Both the position numbers and the translations under genes were made by a program. From positions 1 to 37,263 of IMG/VR virus record IMGVR_UViG_2778261172_000006: a stretch of 37,263 bases of DNA; one strand, given 5' to 3'. Below are positions 1,063-10,044 of the stretch, piece by piece. Position 1 is the stretch's first letter. Each line of letters begins with the position of its first letter. The DNA comes from a virus (lineage: Duplodnaviria; Heunggongvirae; Uroviricota; Caudoviricetes). The notes beneath the pieces were generated by a model. That model saw only the letters and a list, made by a program, of their open reading frames with translations. It was not told where the DNA came from and made no database searches.

Positions 1063-1404
1063 TCAGCCAACATTGCGGCCTGATCGGGGTGATTTTTGGG
1101 TAATGCCGATTGAAACCTGATCGCCCTCCGACTGAATAGAGCCATCAAGAGAGAGAGCCGGAGCAACCTGCCCGGCAGCGGGAAATGTTTTGTCGTGAAG
1201 TATCCACATAGTGTATTTTTCGAATCGCTCGACCTGGATTACTTTTTCTACAACCTCAATTCGCGCAGGTTTATATCCAGACTCATAATTTCCTATAGTC
1301 CCTACAGAAACCCCCGTTACTTGCGAAAACTGAGATTGTGTAAGTTTTTCCGCATTTCTGATCGCCTTTAGTTTTTTGGCGTAATCTCTTGACATGTTCA
1401 CCAT
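1063..1404 (-). CDS. immunity repressor, P2 C-like
   Basis: 113-aa ORF from ATG at 1404 (AGAGGA RBS); HTH segment LTQSQFSQVTGVSVGTIGNYESG; C-terminal FEKYTMWILHD...GQVAPAL resembles the remembered P2 C C-terminus; sits between int and cox-like gene. Confidence 0.8.
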   Translation of the reverse strand: MVNMSRDYAKKLKAIRNAEKLTQSQFSQVTGVSVGTIGNYESGYKPARIEVVEKVIQVERFEKYTMWILHDKTFPAAGQVAPALSLDGSIQSEGDQVSIGITQKSPRSGRNVG

Positions 1405-1507
1405 ACGATGAGTATCCTCTTTTCGCTCTTCACCACACGGTGAAGAAAACAAACCAAAACAAACCATCACAAGGCGCAACAAGCGCACCAACGCAAGAGG
1501 ATAACAA
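1405..1507. promoter_or_regulatory. immunity switch region between repressor and cox-like gene; candidate operators and early/repressor promoters
   Basis: Perfect 8-bp inverted repeat TCTTCACC-ACAC-GGTGAAGA at 1427-1446 followed by tandem direct repeat AAAACAAACC x2 at 1446-1465; promoters not pinpointed. Confidence 0.4.
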
Positions 1508-2029
1508 ATGCGGGACTTCATTGCCGATAAAGAGTTATCTGACCACCAACCACTTCAGGAAAGTGACACACTCAGCGGATCCATTGATGCCGCCAACGAC
1601 GACGAACACGAAGAAAACAAGAAAAAGCGCTCCTACAAAAAAGGAGCGACTTTACGGCTGGATGGTCCGATCGCCGGGCTTTGCTCTCTGGAAAAAGGCG
1701 CGGCATATATTGGCCTAACAAAATCTGCACTGCGCGTAGCCATTCATCGCGGTCAAATGCCGGGACACAAAACGCGCACAAACCCAGAAGATGAAAACTC
1801 AGACGGAGTATGGTGGTTTAACGCCAAAGAGTGGGACAAGTTGGCTGATGAGCTACCAGAGTACGAGCCCCCAGAATGGCACAACTGGAAAAGTTACTGG
1901 ACGTATGACCGCCAGAAAAGAAAGTTCTCTCCAGCCGACAAAGAAGACTGCCAGACCGTTAACGGAAAACGGGTTTATATGGGTAGAAGCTCAAAGCTGG
2001 AGCGACTCAAAAGCAGCGAAGGCAACTAA
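1508..2029 (+). CDS. Cox-like excisionase/early regulator with N- and C-terminal extensions
   Basis: ATG at 1508 with AGAGGA RBS; central segment GAAYIGLTKSALRVAIHRGQMPGH and GVWWFNAKEW resemble the P2 Cox HTH and aromatic motif; 173 aa versus about 90 for Cox. Confidence 0.55.
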   Translation: MRDFIADKELSDHQPLQESDTLSGSIDAANDDEHEENKKKRSYKKGATLRLDGPIAGLCSLEKGAAYIGLTKSALRVAIHRGQMPGHKTRTNPEDENSDGVWWFNAKEWDKLADELPEYEPPEWHNWKSYWTYDRQKRKFSPADKEDCQTVNGKRVYMGRSSKLERLKSSEGN

Positions 2030-4112: not shown

Positions 4113-4316
4113 ATGAACAAAAAGACCTGGTTTCGCGCATACATGTGGGCGCTGGTATGCGTCCTCGTTTCTCTCATTCTGTATGCAGGACTACTCCCCC
4201 GAATGATTTCATCAGACAGCTCCTTCCTGGTATTGCTGGGCATTTTCATTGCCATGCTGTACCCGGCAGGCGTTGTTCGCCTTTTCAGTAAGTACATCAA
4301 GGAAATCAAACAATGA
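4113..4316 (+). CDS. small two-TM membrane protein (67 aa)
   Basis: Two hydrophobic helices (YMWALVCVLVSLILYAGLL and FLVLLGIFIAMLYPAGVV); stop overlaps the SPFH gene start (ATGA at 4313). Confidence 0.55.
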   Translation: MNKKTWFRAYMWALVCVLVSLILYAGLLPRMISSDSSFLVLLGIFIAMLYPAGVVRLFSKYIKEIKQ

Positions 4317-5143
4317 AGAAATTCAAACTCTTTCAGATTATCCCGCTTTTTGCCGCCATCCTGCTGGCTGGTTGCGATCGCGTTGAGCCAGGTAATGTGG
4401 GCATCAAAGTCAACAAACTGGGCGACGACAAAGGCGTCGGCGAAGTGGTCGGCGTTGGCCGCTACTGGACTGGCTGGAATACAGAGGTTTACATCTTCCC
4501 AACCTTCAAACAAATGAAGACCTACGATGAGCCGTTCAGCTTCCAGATGAGTGACGGCACAACCATCGGCTATCACATCGGCGTGGCTTACAAGGTTGAT
4601 CCATCCAAAGTTACCACAGTGTTTCAGACCTACCGCAAAGGCGTGGATGACATTACCGACACTGACCTGCGCCAGAAGATCGCCGACGCACTCAACCGAC
4701 TGGCCAGCAAAATGACCACCGATAAATTCATCGACGGTGGCAAGTCTGAACTGCTGGATTCAGCACTTAAAGATATTCAGGCAGAAATGACACCCATCGG
4801 CATTCAGGTAATGAGCCTCTCTTATGTCGGTAAACCGGAATACCCGCCAACCGTGATCGACAGCATTAATGCCAAAGTCACAGCGAACCAGAAAACCCTG
4901 CAACGCGAACAGGAAGTAAAACAGCGCGAAGCAGAAGCCAACATGTTGCGCGCAGAAGCTGCCGGACAGGCTGATGCCATTCGCACAAAAGCCCAGGCTG
5001 AAGCCGACGCCATTCGTTTACGCGGTGAAGCTCTGCGCCAGAATCCCGGCGTTATGGAGCTGGAAGCAATCAACAAATGGAACGGCACGCTGCCGCAATA
5101 CATGACCAGCAATACCGCTGTTCCGTTTGTTCCGGTGAAGTAA
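4313..5143 (+). CDS. SPFH/band-7 (prohibitin-like) domain lipoprotein
   Basis: N-terminal signal with lipobox LLAGC; central SPFH-like core; C-terminal Ala/Glu/Gln/Arg-rich coiled-coil (QREQEVKQREAEANMLRAEAAGQADAIR...). Confidence 0.75.
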   Translation: MKKFKLFQIIPLFAAILLAGCDRVEPGNVGIKVNKLGDDKGVGEVVGVGRYWTGWNTEVYIFPTFKQMKTYDEPFSFQMSDGTTIGYHIGVAYKVDPSKVTTVFQTYRKGVDDITDTDLRQKIADALNRLASKMTTDKFIDGGKSELLDSALKDIQAEMTPIGIQVMSLSYVGKPEYPPTVIDSINAKVTANQKTLQREQEVKQREAEANMLRAEAAGQADAIRTKAQAEADAIRLRGEALRQNPGVMELEAINKWNGTLPQYMTSNTAVPFVPVK

Positions 5144-5311
5144 TTAAACCCGGCCAGTGAAAATCGCTGGCCGGAGCAGTATCAGGATTTTTTAGTATGC
5201 CGTTCTCACAAAAAAACCGCTTGCCATGCCGCAATCAGTCAGGTTACATTTCCGCTGCACCTCATAAAACGGGTGCCGGGATTTCCACCCCGCTGACAAC
5301 TACAGCGCACA

Positions 5312-5331
5312 ACCGCGCCAGCGGTTTTTTT
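5312..5331 (+). terminator. candidate intrinsic terminator
   Basis: ACCGC-GCCA-GCGGT hairpin directly followed by seven T residues. Confidence 0.5.
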
Positions 5332-5510
5332 GTGCGTACTGTATCGCCACGTCTTTTTCGCACACGAATTATGGTGGGGCGTACGGGGCCGACTTCGGTC
5401 GGGCCGGGTTCTGTAGTTGCCGGTTGTGGAAACCCTGTACGTCTCACCACCCCGAGTTTTCCACCTCTGGATGGTGAGTTTTCAAAACTTGCAACTACAG
5501 AGGCCACACC

Positions 5511-5741
5511 ATGGCAAACCGCAAACAGCACCGCGCTATCGCGGAGCGTCGTCACATCCAGACTGAAATCAACCGCAGACTTTTCCGCGCATCACGCGTC
5601 GCGCAAATCATGCACATCAATATGCTGCATGAACGCAGTCACGCACTATCGAACAGCTATTCCGCCTCTGTTTTCAGCTATCTGGCGGATGATCTGCGCG
5701 AGCTTCAGCAGCTCATCCAGCAGCAAAACAAACTCCATTAA
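5511..5741 (+). CDS. hypothetical small basic protein (76 aa)
   Basis: ATG at 5511 with AGAGG about 8 nt upstream; Arg/His-rich helical sequence; overlaps antisense and alternative ORFs so coding status is uncertain. Confidence 0.4.
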   Translation: MANRKQHRAIAERRHIQTEINRRLFRASRVAQIMHINMLHERSHALSNSYSASVFSYLADDLRELQQLIQQQNKLH

Positions 5742-5813
5742 TTCTGGTTCCGGGCCTTTCCTGCACCTTGCGGCGGGAGGCCTTCGCACATCTGTAACAA
5801 GAGGATTGCCGCA

Positions 5814-6179
5814 ATGATTCTCGCCAACGACTTTCTTGAATACCTGCTCAACACAGAGCGCGATCTTGCCGTTCGCGTGCGTGACCGTTATGACATGTAC
5901 CTGAAATCCCTGCCTGTACCGCAGCTCGCTGACGGAAAGATTGTTATTGATGGCCGCTACATGATTGACAGCCACGAGGGAAATTACAGGCTTTACCGCA
6001 TTGAAGGCGGCACCCCGTCCGTTATTGGCATTTACCAGCACCCATCCTCTGCGATCGTCGATGTGATTGCAGACAGCATCCGCATCACACATCGCTATGC
6101 CGACACAGAAGACACCGTACTGGAAATTCAGCGGCTGGCTGCCGTTTGCCGTGACACCCTGAACGGTATGACGAAGTAA
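5814..6179 (+). CDS. hypothetical protein immediately upstream of A (121 aa)
   Basis: ATG at 5814 with AAGAGGA RBS. Confidence 0.55.
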   Translation: MILANDFLEYLLNTERDLAVRVRDRYDMYLKSLPVPQLADGKIVIDGRYMIDSHEGNYRLYRIEGGTPSVIGIYQHPSSAIVDVIADSIRITHRYADTEDTVLEIQRLAAVCRDTLNGMTK

Positions 6180-6185
6180 ATCAGT

Positions 6186-9008
6186 ATGACGACAGAGTAC
6201 ATCAGGGACTGGCAACAACCGCGCCACGCAGTAGGGCGTGAAGGAACGGGGATCCCCACTCCTGAATCCGCGCTTTCCTCCTGGCTGGATGCCTACCGGG
6301 CAGAGAACGAGCGCCACCAGGAAAAGGCTGATGCGGCGTTCTCCGCCACGCCACTGGGCAACCTGATTAATAAAAGCCTGGACGCACAGGAAAAACAGGA
6401 CAAAACCATCACGCTGGCAGGAGAAGCCAGAAGACAGACACGCGGCACGGTGGATGAAGCCATGGCCTCGCTGCGCCTGCTGCCGTCCTATCTGCGCGAT
6501 CCGCTTATTCGCCACCTCTCCTTCCTGCGCAAAAAACAGGAAGCCGATCTCCGGAAAGAAAAAAATGCCTGGCAGGCAGAAAACTATGCACGCGGAACCC
6601 TGCGCAAGATATTCGTTCGCATTAACCGTGCCGACAGTCGCTGGCTGACACCGGGTTATCGCTCCCTCGCCGGACGTGAGCGTCTGGATGATTTGCTTTA
6701 CCTGCCGCAGCTCAATAAACACCAGATACAGACACTGGCCACCATGACAGCGGCAATGTTCAGCAGCACCTTCGAAACACTCTGTGATGGTTTCGGTGCC
6801 AAAGATGGCGAGCTGACCATGGAGGTGGCACTGAAGGCGTATCAGATGCTGGCCCGCATGGCGTTACACCTGCACACCGTGCCGCCGCATTACGAAGCAC
6901 TGACAACAGACAAAGACCGGAGGAACGAACCGGACACGGAGCTGCTGCCGGGCGCAATCCTTCGTCTGACCTGTGCGGAATGGTGGAAACGCAAACTGTG
7001 GCTGTTACGTTGCGAGTGGCGGGAAGAACAACTCCGTGCCGCCTGTCTGGTTTCCAGAAAAACATCGCCCTATCTGAGCCAGGACGCGTTAAGCGAGTTT
7101 CGCGCACAGCGCGAGAAAACACGCGATTTTCTGAAAAGTTTCATGCTGGAAAACGAAGACGGGTTCACGATTGATCTCGAGACAGTGTATTACGCGGGAG
7201 TAAGTAACCCGGTTCACCGTAAGGCAGAAATGATGGCCACCATGAAGGGGCTGGAACTTCTGGCCGAAGCCCGTGGCGACAAAGCGGTGTTTCTGACTGT
7301 CACCTGCCCGTCAAAATACCACGCCACAACGGAGAACGGTCATCCGAACCCCAAATGGAACGGGGCCACCATGCGCGACTCCAGCGATTACCTGGTTAAC
7401 ACGTTTTTTGCGGCGGTCCGCAAAAAACTGAACCGCGACGGTCTTCGCTGGTATGGCATCCGCACGGTGGAGCCTCACCATGACGGCACCGTGCACTGGC
7501 ATATGATGGTCTTTGCTCATCCGGAAGAAATCGACAGCATCGTGGCCATCACCCGCGATATTGCCATTCAGGAAGACCGCCACGAGCTGGGTGATGATAT
7601 TACCCCACGCTTTAAGGTGGAGTATGTCGACGGCTCAAAAGGCACACCAACCAGCTACATCGCCACCTACATCGGAAAGAACCTGGACAGCCGCGCCGTG
7701 GATGGCATCGACCCGAAAACGGGCAAGCCACGCGTTGACCACGAAACAGGAAAATCAATGACCGAGAGCGTGGAACGCGCCATCGGCTGGGCGCGCCTTC
7801 ACCGGGTCCGCCAGTTCCAGTTCTTTGGCATTCCCTCCCGTCAGGTGTGGCGTGAACTCCGCCGCCTTGCCAGCCAGATGGCACGCAACCCGGAAGGCCC
7901 GCAACGGCTGAAGAATGACGCAATGGATGCGGTACTCGCTGCCGCCGATGCCGGGTGTTTTGCCTCCTACATTGAAAAACAGGGCGGCGTACTTGTTCCA
8001 CGCAAAGACTACCTGATTCGCACCGCCTACGACCTCGCAGATGAGCCGAACGATTACGGCGAACAGAGCGTACAGATTTACGGGATCTGGTCACCACTCA
8101 TCGGGGAATCCTCCCGTGTGTGCACGCACCCGGATAACTGGAAGCTGGTAAGACGTAAACCGGAAGCGGAAGACAACACCCGCGAAAATGGTTTTGACCT
8201 TCAGGGCGGCCCTGCCGCCCCTTGGACTCGTGGCAATAACTGTCCCCGTGTACAGGAAACGGACAACAACGGGACAGAACAGCCGGAAGAACGGCCAGCA
8301 CCGTGGCCGCAGCTTCCTGACGGCATTGAAGTGAACGAATGGATGCGCTCACTGAAACGGCACGAACGCCGGGCGCTGATGCGTTCGCTTCGTGACAAAC
8401 AGGCAAAAAACAGCAGTGATGAAATGCAGAGCTGGACACAGAGCCGCAAACAGCAGCGGCCTTTGCCTGATAACCACGAATTACTCGCTAGAGAATGGCG
8501 GGAGTCTGCTGAATCTCTCGGCCTGCATATCGGTGAACAACAAATGCAGCACCTGTTACGGGGCGGCAGTCTGTACGTTGACGGCAGCATCATTGCACCG
8601 CAGGGATTTGAAATTGTACGCAAACCGGATACCCGCCCGGACAGCCGAATCACGCAGCTCTGGCAACGCCTGAGCCGTAATCACGGCGTAAGCAGCACGG
8701 AGATCCGCCATAACCCGGTCGCCAGCTATCTGGAACAGCTGGGGGCATCAGACCCTGAAGCCGCCGCACGCCTGGCATCCACACTTCAGCAGGACCAGAA
8801 CACCATGAAAACACCCGTTACCGTGCTTTCTGACATGCTGCGCGCCATCCGCGACGCAGAGCACGCACAGAGAATCAGTGAAACCACTGAACGCGCCCGC
8901 CGCAAAGCAGACCTGCTGCGGGGTGGCCTGACCAGTGGAAACAAAAAACAGACAGAAACGGGATTCACAAATCCCGTAAATGAGCAAAAAACGCGCCGCG
9001 ATATATGA
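6186..9008 (+). CDS. A: replication initiation endonuclease, P2 gpA family, with long C-terminal extension
   Basis: 940-aa ORF; HxH-type motif (TVHWHMMVF) and P2 A-like core around residues 330-600; position between early genes and the cargo region. Confidence 0.88.
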   Translation: MTTEYIRDWQQPRHAVGREGTGIPTPESALSSWLDAYRAENERHQEKADAAFSATPLGNLINKSLDAQEKQDKTITLAGEARRQTRGTVDEAMASLRLLPSYLRDPLIRHLSFLRKKQEADLRKEKNAWQAENYARGTLRKIFVRINRADSRWLTPGYRSLAGRERLDDLLYLPQLNKHQIQTLATMTAAMFSSTFETLCDGFGAKDGELTMEVALKAYQMLARMALHLHTVPPHYEALTTDKDRRNEPDTELLPGAILRLTCAEWWKRKLWLLRCEWREEQLRAACLVSRKTSPYLSQDALSEFRAQREKTRDFLKSFMLENEDGFTIDLETVYYAGVSNPVHRKAEMMATMKGLELLAEARGDKAVFLTVTCPSKYHATTENGHPNPKWNGATMRDSSDYLVNTFFAAVRKKLNRDGLRWYGIRTVEPHHDGTVHWHMMVFAHPEEIDSIVAITRDIAIQEDRHELGDDITPRFKVEYVDGSKGTPTSYIATYIGKNLDSRAVDGIDPKTGKPRVDHETGKSMTESVERAIGWARLHRVRQFQFFGIPSRQVWRELRRLASQMARNPEGPQRLKNDAMDAVLAAADAGCFASYIEKQGGVLVPRKDYLIRTAYDLADEPNDYGEQSVQIYGIWSPLIGESSRVCTHPDNWKLVRRKPEAEDNTRENGFDLQGGPAAPWTRGNNCPRVQETDNNGTEQPEERPAPWPQLPDGIEVNEWMRSLKRHERRALMRSLRDKQAKNSSDEMQSWTQSRKQQRPLPDNHELLAREWRESAESLGLHIGEQQMQHLLRGGSLYVDGSIIAPQGFEIVRKPDTRPDSRITQLWQRLSRNHGVSSTEIRHNPVASYLEQLGASDPEAAARLASTLQQDQNTMKTPVTVLSDMLRAIRDAEHAQRISETTERARRKADLLRGGLTSGNKKQTETGFTNPVNEQKTRRDI
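8956..8980. repeat. 25-bp palindromic element, copy 1 (AAACGGGATT-CACA-AATCCCGTAAA)
   Basis: 8-bp inverted repeat ACGGGATT/AATCCCGT with 4-nt spacer, inside the 3' end of A. Confidence 0.7.
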
Positions 9009-9084: not shown

Positions 9085-10044
9085 ATGAAAATTTGTATCG
9101 ACGACGGCTCCACCAACATCAAGCTGGCATGGACTGAGAACGGCGAACGCCGCAACGCCATCAGCCCGAACAGCTTCAAGTCGGAATGGTCTGCGCCGTT
9201 CGGTGGCACGCAGCCCGCGAACTACATGCTTGATGGCGTGCGCTATGGTTTTGATCCGGTCAGCGATCGCTTTGTCCAGACGACCGACACGCAATACCAG
9301 TACAGCGATGTGAATGTCATTGCCATTCATCACGCGCTGGTCAAATCAGGCATCACGCCACAGGAGGTGGATGTGGTTGTCACCCTGCCACTGAGCGAGT
9401 ATTTCGACACAAACGCACAGCCGGACATGGCCAACATCAACCGCAAAAAAGCGAACGTTATGCGCCCGGTGGAGTACCAGAACGGCGAAGCATTCACTAT
9501 CCGTAACGTGCGGGTTATGCCTGAATCCATTCCGGCTGGCTTTAAGGCACTGGCTGACATGAGTCCGTTTGAATCCCTGCTGATTGTGGATTTAGGCGGA
9601 ACCACGCTGGATGTGGCAAAGGTTCAGGGGCAACTGGCAGGTATCAGCCAGGTGTTTTGCGATCCACACGTAGGCGTTTCCCTGATGGTCGATGCCGTGC
9701 TGTCGGTGATGGCCGCTAACGGTATGCGTACCAGTCACCACATCGCCAATACCATTATCGAACATCGCCATGATGAAGCCTGGTTGCGCCAACACATCCA
9801 CAATGACGCGCATTACGCCAGCCTGATGGCGGTTATTCGTGAAAAGGAAGAAACACTGAAACAACGCGTGATCCGCGCGCTGGCGGGTTTTTCGGGTTAC
9901 GGACGGGTGATGGTTGTCGGTGGCGGGGCGGAGATTGTGGCACCCGCTATCCGCGAAGCCTGCGGAGTTAATGCGACTTTCATCGCGGACGGGGTGCCAC
10001 AGTTTGCTCTGGTTAATGGGCTGTACGCAATGGACAAGGAGTAA
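9085..10044 (+). CDS. parM: ParM/StbA-like actin-type segregation ATPase
   Basis: 319 aa; N-terminus MKICIDDGSTNIKLAW, SDVNVIAIHHAL, VMPESIPAG, DLGGTTLD and VVGGGAE match remembered plasmid R1 ParM motifs along the whole length. Confidence 0.85.
   Translation: MKICIDDGSTNIKLAWTENGERRNAISPNSFKSEWSAPFGGTQPANYMLDGVRYGFDPVSDRFVQTTDTQYQYSDVNVIAIHHALVKSGITPQEVDVVVTLPLSEYFDTNAQPDMANINRKKANVMRPVEYQNGEAFTIRNVRVMPESIPAGFKALADMSPFESLLIVDLGGTTLDVAKVQGQLAGISQVFCDPHVGVSLMVDAVLSVMAANGMRTSHHIANTIIEHRHDEAWLRQHIHNDAHYASLMAVIREKEETLKQRVIRALAGFSGYGRVMVVGGGAEIVAPAIREACGVNATFIADGVPQFALVNGLYAMDKE

Follow-up and report, generated by a model that had tools for sequence, protein, structure and literature searches.

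The sequence analysed here (37,263 nucleotides; hereafter, the window) is a prophage of the P2 family close to Escherichia phage P88, genus Xuanwuvirus, with which it shares 96.9% identity over the 1.9 kb surrounding the region of interest. This region, located in the early operon between a gene for an SPFH protein and the genes leading to the replication initiator A, very probably represents an antisense-RNA immunity module (IsrK-C4) like those of the satellite phage P4 and of the immI locus of phages P1 and P7, here carried by a P88-like prophage. Direct support for this assignment comes from membership in two RNA families, the structures of the two RNAs, the three-way covariation of short recognition patches, the positions of the individual elements and the homology of the first downstream gene to the epsilon gene of P4.

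An earlier note on this DNA had described the region as structured and apparently noncoding, had singled out three hairpins, and had offered a small RNA, an attenuator or a secondary promoter for gene A as possible functions. All three hairpins were recovered in the same places by direct reading and by folding, and the structured character of the region was confirmed: positions 5257-5510 fold at -106.8 kcal/mol, compared to -82.2 +/- 5.0 kcal/mol in dinucleotide shuffles (z = -4.94; 0 of 200 shuffles as stable). When the whole window was searched with the Rfam models at their gathering thresholds, exactly two matches were obtained, both within the region. The first match, to the isrK family (RF01394), spans positions 5257-5331 and model positions 1-77 of 77 (63.6 bits against a threshold of 50; E = 1.7e-11), and the second, to the C4 family (RF01695), spans positions 5367-5454 and model positions 1-87 of 87 (80.5 bits against 45; E = 2e-14). 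Both genes are on the plus strand, separated by 35 nucleotides. The hairpin followed by seven T residues that had been noticed earlier is the isrK terminator, and the UUCG hairpin corresponds to the first of the two hairpins inside C4, whereas the first of the three hairpins belongs to a neighbouring cassette (see below), so that only the second and the third are parts of one element. No tRNA or tmRNA was detected in the window with ARAGORN. In the literature, IsrK is equated with seqA, and C4 with CI, of P4 (PMC3632133, PMC4825925, PMC10111431).

The module opens with a sigma-70-like internal promoter (TTGCCA-18-TACATT; positions 5221-5250, plus strand), the putative counterpart of the P4 promoter PLE, which ends 6-7 nucleotides ahead of the 5' end of isrK. 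A -35/-10 pair is found at the same position before isrK in all nine lineages that were compared, namely the window, P4, N15, the Shiga toxin (Stx) phages F039 and JNE121849, mEp460, ST64B, phi191 and cdtI, and the site is nearly invariant in close relatives of the window. The isrK/seqA-type RNA (5257-5331) consists of a first hairpin, a second hairpin that carries the target segment a1 (UUUCCAC, 5282-5288, the complement of the a' segment of C4) in its loop, a linker with the target segment b1 (CAACUACAG, 5297-5305, the complement of b'), and the intrinsic terminator of the short IsrK (5311-5331). The latter comprises a 6-bp stem (5311-5326) followed by seven T residues up to position 5331 and is identified both by the terminator scan and by the Rfam model. 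The isrK structure is 96.6% paired and includes six pairs with compensatory changes, a level reached by none of 500 shuffles. C4 could be made only by read-through of the isrK terminator.

The C4/CI-type antisense RNA (5367-5454) is organized as a 17-bp closing stem, the UUCG hairpin (CCGAC-UUCG-GUCGG, 5389-5402) and a hairpin with a 12-nucleotide loop. Its 27 pairs are maintained in 99.8% of the cells, with 13 pairs changed on both sides; none of 500 shuffles reaches this level, and controls in which the structure was slid along the alignment are only 32-47% paired. Folding is strand-specific, with z = -3.38 for the plus strand and z = -1.32 for the minus strand. The RNA exposes two recognition segments, b' in the 12-nucleotide loop (UUCUGUAGUUGC, 5409-5420) and a' in an unpaired stretch (GUGGAAA, 5426-5432), and each of these has two targets. 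Exact 7-nucleotide complements of a' are present at a1 and at a2 (UUUCCAC, 5458-5464), and complements of b' of 9-12 nucleotides at b1 and at b2 (GCAACUACAGAG, 5491-5502). The b2 target overlaps the Shine-Dalgarno sequence AGAGG of the next gene, an epsilon-like gene described below; AGAGG lies 8 nucleotides 5' of the ATG at position 5511 and is covered by the predicted b'-b2 duplex (12 contiguous pairs, -24.3 kcal/mol). The minimum free energy fold of the read-through transcript contains the b'-b2 helix in cis.

An alternative hairpin (5443-5478) can form between CUCACCA (5443-5449) and UGGUGAG (5472-5478), with a2 in an 8-nucleotide loop. It is present, with a covarying stem, in all nine lineages (L003, L004, L005, L165-L169 and the window), for instance as GCUAUCGCC/GGCGAUAGC in P4, GCUACCACC/GGUGGUAGC in N15 and CCACCGC/GCGGUGG in F039. 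Because CUCACCA is the 3' strand of the closing stem of C4, this hairpin and folded C4 are mutually exclusive on one transcript, and the hairpin may therefore be a switch.

Covariance analysis across relatives, suggested earlier as a check, supports functional RNA-RNA recognition. The relatives are about 160 loci that encode the epsilon-like protein, collected from IMG/VR, GenBank phages and genomes; a scan with one genome per species gave only 3 loci, and the diversity was accordingly drawn from IMG/VR. These are close relatives, with epsilon-like proteins that are 76-100% identical (tblastn). Among the 44 unique upstream sequences, nearly all variation is concentrated in the six patches a1, b1, b', a', a2 and b2, which co-vary and remain complementary, forming 5 a-types, about 12 b-types and 18 combinations (for example, the b' type of the relative L042 is CUUGUGUAG). 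For all four pairings, cognate duplexes are predicted to be more stable than non-cognate ones: -16.3 vs -7.7 kcal/mol for b'-b2, -12.9 vs -6.4 kcal/mol for b'-b1, -17.3 vs -11.9 kcal/mol for a'-a1, and -10.9 vs -7.2 kcal/mol for a'-a2.

Several of these specificities recur outside the P88-like phages. In mEp460 and ST64B (L166/L167), the a-type is a mirror image of that of the window, with UUUCCAC as a' and GUGGAAA as the targets; the a' segment of N15 (L004), UUGAGAA, is one of the a-types of P88-like phages; and in phi191 (L168) the a-type of one Stx phage is joined to the b-type of a second one. Judging from such sequences, the recognition patches appear to be shuffled between phage families, and cross-talk among co-resident elements is conceivable.

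The gene at 5511-5741 (plus strand; 76 amino acids) most likely is the first gene under C4 control. Its product is an epsilon-like 'derepression' (anti-repressor) protein that matches the Pfam family Derepression (PF25738; 30.2 bits, cut-off 27), is 29% identical to P4 epsilon over 66 residues (E = 6e-8), and has 214 homologues, most of which are named derepression protein. In light of these findings, the functions considered in the earlier note can be reassessed. The small RNA is borne out by the Rfam matches to two small-RNA genes, and the attenuator by the intrinsic terminator in isrK combined with the antisense pairing that would block the next gene's ribosome-binding site. As for the secondary promoter, a promoter-like site is indeed present, but the first gene it controls would be the epsilon-like gene rather than A directly. 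The evidence supports the view that the three options hold together as parts of one known device, a module of the P4 seqA-CI / P1 c4 / Gifsy-1 IsrK type, which the note had not recognized.

The presumed opponent of the epsilon-like protein is a P2 C-type repressor encoded in the window at 1063-1521 (minus strand), which is 33% identical to P2 C. It is also only 33% identical to the C repressor of P88 (L001, 1170-1451, minus strand), whereas the remaining early region is about 97% identical, a pattern that looks like a swap of the immunity region with the epsilon-like gene left unchanged.

The arrangement in the window closely follows known systems. The order of the elements is identical in all nine lineages, and P2 itself, used as a negative control, has neither isrK nor C4 in its early region. 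A C4-family RNA is reportedly encoded also in the immI locus (c4-icd-ant) of P1 and P7, where a' and b' are each said to have two targets, one upstream (a1, b1) and one downstream (a2, b2), as in the window, with b2 placed on the ribosome-binding site of the first gene and an anti-repressor encoded downstream, again as in the window. Heteroimmune variants of P1 and P7 reportedly carry matched changes in loop and target, as do the relatives of the window. The differences lie in the downstream genes, said to be icd and ant, as opposed to the epsilon-like gene, orf121 and A in the window, and in the context: immI of P1 reportedly forms a separate operon, whereas the module of the window is placed within the early replication operon.

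In P4, both Rfam models match at the positions of seqA and CI, the promoter has the same position as in the window, and seqC is built in the same way, with a2 followed by b2, the latter fused to GGAGG/GAGG, ahead of the ATG. The P4 order, PLE, seqA, CI, seqC, kil/eta, epsilon and, further on, alpha, is paralleled in the window down to the replication gene, and in both elements a long open reading frame (ORF) that matches the Pfam family Phage_ASH runs from upstream of the internal promoter across both RNAs. There are also clear differences. P4 is a satellite, whereas the element in the window is a complete P2-family phage; the window lacks kil, and the epsilon-like gene itself, unlike its P4 counterpart, is located at the C4-controlled ribosome-binding site; the long ORF of the window overlaps the first regulated gene in another frame and stops on the start codon that follows, whereas eta and kil of P4 are nested in frame; the spacer between isrK and C4 is 35 nucleotides long in the window compared to 107 nucleotides in P4; and the replication gene is of the P2 A type rather than the P4 alpha primase. 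In P4, the constitutive promoter sits inside eta, its transcripts are terminated via the sites CI and seqA, synthesis of full-length Eta relies exclusively on the upstream late promoter, and translation of Eta prevents termination (PMC10111431).

The founder of the isrK family, the isrK-orf45 (STnc1160)-anrP locus of the Salmonella prophage Gifsy-1, produces from one promoter a short terminated IsrK and a translationally silent read-through mRNA, similar to what is proposed below for the window; furthermore, a processed downstream RNA is complementary to IsrK, and the regulated product is an anti-repressor (PMC4825925). Gifsy-1 differs from the window in that weight is given mainly to IsrK as an activator in trans, that the outcome is AntQ-mediated toxicity along with induction of a lambdoid prophage, and that the C4-like part is described as 'orf45'. 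Hfq binding and trans-activation of downstream translation by IsrK have been shown only for Gifsy-1 (PMC4825925). The tandem of isrK and C4 is also present in N15 and in many lambdoid phages. At the anti-immunity locus of N15 (where C4 is known as the CA RNA) and in the SfV-like mEp460, ST64B and cdtI, the tandem comes with the conserved promoter, the a2 hairpin and b2 beside the ribosome-binding site, as in the window, and in the lambdoid phages the module is located in the early operon, between cro and the replication genes, within a long ORF coupled to the preceding gene. At these loci, the regulated gene encodes a Rha/Bro-type regulator in frame with the Ash part, and the a/b specificities differ from those of the window, although the a-type of N15 is common to some P88-like phages.

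The long ORF of the window (206 codons; 5197-5817, plus strand), hereafter the Eta-like ORF, requires separate consideration. The earlier note had dismissed it as low-complexity sequence; its composition is indeed of this kind, but the dismissal does not stand, given that the ORF matches Phage_ASH and is the counterpart of P4 eta. The description of the region as apparently noncoding is likewise half right: it contains the two RNA genes, but also this ORF, which exceeds the Phage_ASH cut-off and is mostly open in relatives. The Eta-like ORF, a member of what is annotated as 'ash family protein', begins before the -35 hexamer (5221) of the internal promoter and continues across isrK, C4 and a2/b2; it then covers the epsilon-like gene completely, in a different frame, and has its stop codon on the start codon of orf121 (ATGA). 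The match to Phage_ASH (PF10554) covers residues 17-108 (27.1 bits, cut-off 26), whereas the P4 ORF at 8168-8812 (listed with 214 codons) matches the full profile (positions 1-107; 82.2 bits). We take this P4 ORF to be eta, which has 197 codons. No significant BLASTP alignment was obtained between the Eta-like ORF and the P4 eta ORF, even though both match Phage_ASH.

The product of gene gp32 of N15 and the upstream extension of the Rha ORF of an Stx phage match only positions 49-106 of the profile, that is, the half derived from C4, and both ORFs start at an ATG inside C4. Phage_ASH is thus matched by translations of the C4 region of P4, N15 and the Stx phage in one common frame. Together, these matches suggest that the family is a conceptual translation of the isrK and C4 RNA genes in a single frame, which would account for the label 'ash family protein' that the Prokaryotic Genome Annotation Pipeline (PGAP) places on the RNA region in E. 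coli genomes. The weak protein-level signal of the Eta-like ORF probably follows from conservation of the RNAs. The C-terminal half of the ORF has no PHROG family, with matches ending around residue 123. In mEp460, ST64B and cdtI, an annotated 383-amino-acid Rha/anti-repressor ORF likewise spans isrK and C4; it overlaps the stop codon of the preceding gene and is located between cro and the replication genes.

The in-frame ATG at the place of 5197 is kept in five unrelated upstream contexts, and the frame is open in about 76 of the 88 unique variants (about 86%), to within a few nucleotides of the next start codon, mostly as ATGA. From the 78 + 27 single-site variants observed over the epsilon-like gene and the spacer that follows it, about 3.6 stop codons would be expected and none is found (P ~0.03); given how close the relatives are, this test of ORF conservation has limited power. 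In 11 unique variants (relatives L088, L089, L133, L136, L139, L142, L144, L148, L151, L153 and L157), the frame is broken by a TGA located three nucleotides before a conserved ATG inside C4 (TGA-ATT-ATG), an arrangement that would allow termination and re-initiation and may be either tolerated decay or a functional variant. On balance, functional translation of the Eta-like ORF appears somewhat more probable than its absence, a judgement based on sequence comparison. The minus-strand ORF at 5262-5555, annotated as a coding sequence in P88, was rejected: it matches no family, and the minus strand folds no better than shuffles.

By analogy with the P4, P1 and Gifsy-1 systems, the module could work as follows. 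The promoter at 5221-5250 would be active in the lysogen, and most of its transcripts would end at the isrK terminator, yielding short IsrK. The RNA that reads through would carry C4, probably excised as a stable RNA of about 80 nucleotides; release from a leader transcript, by RNase P among others, is characteristic of C4-family RNAs. The a' and b' segments would then pair with a2 and b2, in cis when C4 is unprocessed or in trans when it is processed, and so mask the ribosome-binding site of the epsilon-like gene. With translation blocked, premature Rho-dependent termination would be probable, as in P4 and P1, and the epsilon-like gene, orf121 and A would be silent. The a1 and b1 segments of IsrK would act as decoys that compete for the same segments of C4, and because of this competition the ratio of IsrK to C4 could flip the switch, as in Gifsy-1. 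Transcripts from the early promoter Pe would include the ATG at 5197 and hence permit translation of the Eta-like ORF; the ribosomes would cross the terminator, C4 and the targets, so that these transcripts would be insensitive to the block, in the manner of P4 eta, and A would be expressed during lytic growth. Such a bypass of the RNA block by Eta-like translation from early-operon transcripts is probable by comparison with P4. Promoter activity, the processing of C4, termination and Eta-like translation are likewise inferred, as is the target of the epsilon-like protein.

Several observations weigh against this scheme or parts of it. The promoter call is a match to 9 of the 12 consensus positions, and the region holds no more matches of this kind than shuffles do. 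The Phage_ASH score of the Eta-like ORF is marginal, statistical support for the avoidance of stop codons over the epsilon-like gene is modest (P ~0.03), 11-12 of the 88 unique variants have the Eta-like frame interrupted just 5' of C4, and, unlike the eta/kil pair of P4, the Eta-like ORF and the first regulated gene are in different frames (5197 vs 5511). The window and P88 have epsilon-like proteins with 96% identity but C repressors with only 33%, so that one-to-one pairing of anti-repressor and repressor is unproven and the cognate specificity is uncertain. P4 epsilon binds P2 C, and Thr67 and Ile70 of P2 C matter for this binding (PMC2995052); in a sequence comparison, the equivalents of these residues were not conserved in the C repressor of the window. 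Finally, no LexA box lies near the module. The sole CTGT-N8-ACAG match in the window sits within gene A, and SOS control of the module was rejected on these grounds.

Of the alternatives, the strongest retains the same module but assigns it a chiefly activating role, whereby IsrK would open the epsilon-like ribosome-binding site in trans, the short RNA having as its partner either C4 or the long read-through RNA, which is translationally silent, and the anti-repressor would inactivate C and induce the prophage. This scenario draws on Gifsy-1, where IsrK is needed for induction and activates translation of the anti-repressor AnrP (PMC4825925), and it fits the observation that a1 and b1 in IsrK have the same specificity as a2 and b2. 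It would also make sense of a peculiarity of P2-like prophages: the P2-type C lacks a self-cleavage motif, yet the P2-like prophage Sp13 of O157 Sakai, which bears an epsilon-like gene, responded to mitomycin C, an unexpected response noted in 2009 (PMC2669165). P88 was recovered following mitomycin C treatment (PMC5285337), and the repressor of the window is of the P2 C type. Against an activating role, no signal input is visible, with no LexA box nearby, the epsilon-like protein does not co-vary with C, and for this phage the argument is an analogy with Gifsy-1. Chiefly activating function is therefore a serious possibility, though we hold it somewhat short of even, and it is compatible with the immunity module rather than exclusive of it.

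A plain terminator or attenuator accompanied by incidental hairpins, placed between the accessory early genes and the replication genes and involving no trans-acting RNA, would account for the hairpin with its seven T residues at 5311-5331 and for the location of the region between gene blocks. It would not account for the two full-length matches to covariance models or for the compensatory changes in stems other than that of the terminator, and the three-way covariation between the loop and distant targets is left unexplained by a simple terminator; this explanation is very improbable. Even less credit, if only slightly, can be given to the idea that the region is simply protein-coding, be it for an 'ash family protein' or for the P88 minus-strand protein, with the RNA features as by-products: the Phage_ASH match, the PGAP annotations and the mostly conserved ORF speak for it, but the variation follows base-pair complementarity rather than codon position, with the patches altering amino acids freely, P4, N15 and the Stx phage all yield Phage_ASH matches when their C4 regions are translated in the same frame, no PHROG match extends to the C-terminal half of the Eta-like ORF, and the minus-strand ORF has neither a family match nor folding above that of shuffles.

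The limits of the IsrK-C4 module are well defined on the 5' side. The stem-loop at 5149-5174 (plus strand; stem CCGGCCAG/CTGGCCGG), which the earlier note had grouped with the two other hairpins, is stable (minimum free energy -21.8 kcal/mol, z = -4.08; 0 of 200 shuffles as stable), but is no canonical intrinsic terminator, the T-run beginning 13 nucleotides past the stem. Among relatives, it occurs solely where the SPFH cassette is present; in four other upstream contexts the hairpin is missing but the module is kept. In all five contexts, the conserved block starts at about 5197-5207. This start being independent of what lies upstream, the hairpin is assigned to the 3' end of the SPFH cassette, outside the module, and its candidacy as a module terminator was rejected since it co-occurs with that cassette only. 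The cassette, with its membrane-protein and SPFH genes at 4113-5143 ahead of the hairpin, is a two-gene moron (4113-5196) inserted between the stop codon of an Ead/Ea22-like ORF (4101) and the ATG of the Eta-like ORF (5197). It consists of a 67-amino-acid membrane protein, a 276-amino-acid SPFH/Band-7 lipoprotein and the 3' hairpin, and is missing from most relatives; the SPFH gene is 86-93% identical to genes of phiP27, Stx phages and P1-like phages.

On the 3' side, the epsilon-like gene is followed by a 72-nucleotide spacer with a conserved hairpin-like element (5753-5787; GGCCUUUCC...GGGAGGCC, core GCGGGAGGCCUUCGC), the core of which is kept in a diverged epsilon lineage with different flanks. 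The downstream cargo of the module comprises orf121 (5814-6179, plus strand; PHROG 3237), for which no Pfam family match was found and which was rejected as a counterpart of P4 orf151 because the two show no similarity, and the gene for the replication initiator A of the GPA family (6186-9008, plus strand; Pfam Phage_GPA, 433 bits). Just 3' of gene A, at 9085-10044, the window encodes a ParM-type actin-like segregation protein (StbA_N and ParM C-terminal domains), and in P88 a partition protein is annotated beside the homologue of this gene. The presence of a ParM-type gene in an integrase-carrying P2-family phage hints at an option of plasmid-like maintenance.

The module together with the epsilon-like gene is present in 1154-1179 of 5426 complete E. 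coli genomes (about 22%). The P88 RefSeq record annotates this stretch as a minus-strand hypothetical protein, and other public records give 'similar to ash family protein', 'ash family protein' or 'hypothetical protein'; among the P88 RefSeq and E. coli records inspected, none annotates the module as RNA, while at least one Stx phage record annotates both the isrK and the C4 RNAs. By keyword search, the module is not described for P88-like phages in the P88, phiSM and O157 Sakai papers. No new category is opened by the finding, given that elements of this type were recognized decades ago (P1 c4, P4 CI/seqA, N15 CA, Gifsy-1 IsrK). What is somewhat new is the setting, namely a helper-type P2-family phage, an epsilon-like gene at the controlled ribosome-binding site, and the out-of-frame Eta-like ORF. 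An extended interpretation would combine three elements: the module as the missing induction switch of SOS-blind prophages with P2 C-type repressors, a recombining a/b RNA 'immunity code' by which prophages and satellites silence or trigger each other, and an Eta-like ORF kept open only for the bypass by ribosomes. This combination, taken as a whole, is rather unlikely.

The assignment explains a stretch of DNA that occurs in some 22% of complete E. coli genomes and is usually mis-annotated as protein. In a helper-type P2-family phage, it puts a P4-type RNA gate immediately ahead of the epsilon-like anti-repressor gene and of the replication gene, and this gate suggests a testable account of the so far unexplained mitomycin response of P2-like prophages with repressors incapable of self-cleavage (PMC2669165). 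The 18 a/b combinations on a near-constant background constitute a natural set of compensatory mutations for the study of RNA-RNA specificity. If the notion of an RNA code is correct, co-resident prophages and P4-like satellites would be able to silence or trigger each other, with some of the recognition types shared with, or mirrored in, N15 and lambdoid phages.

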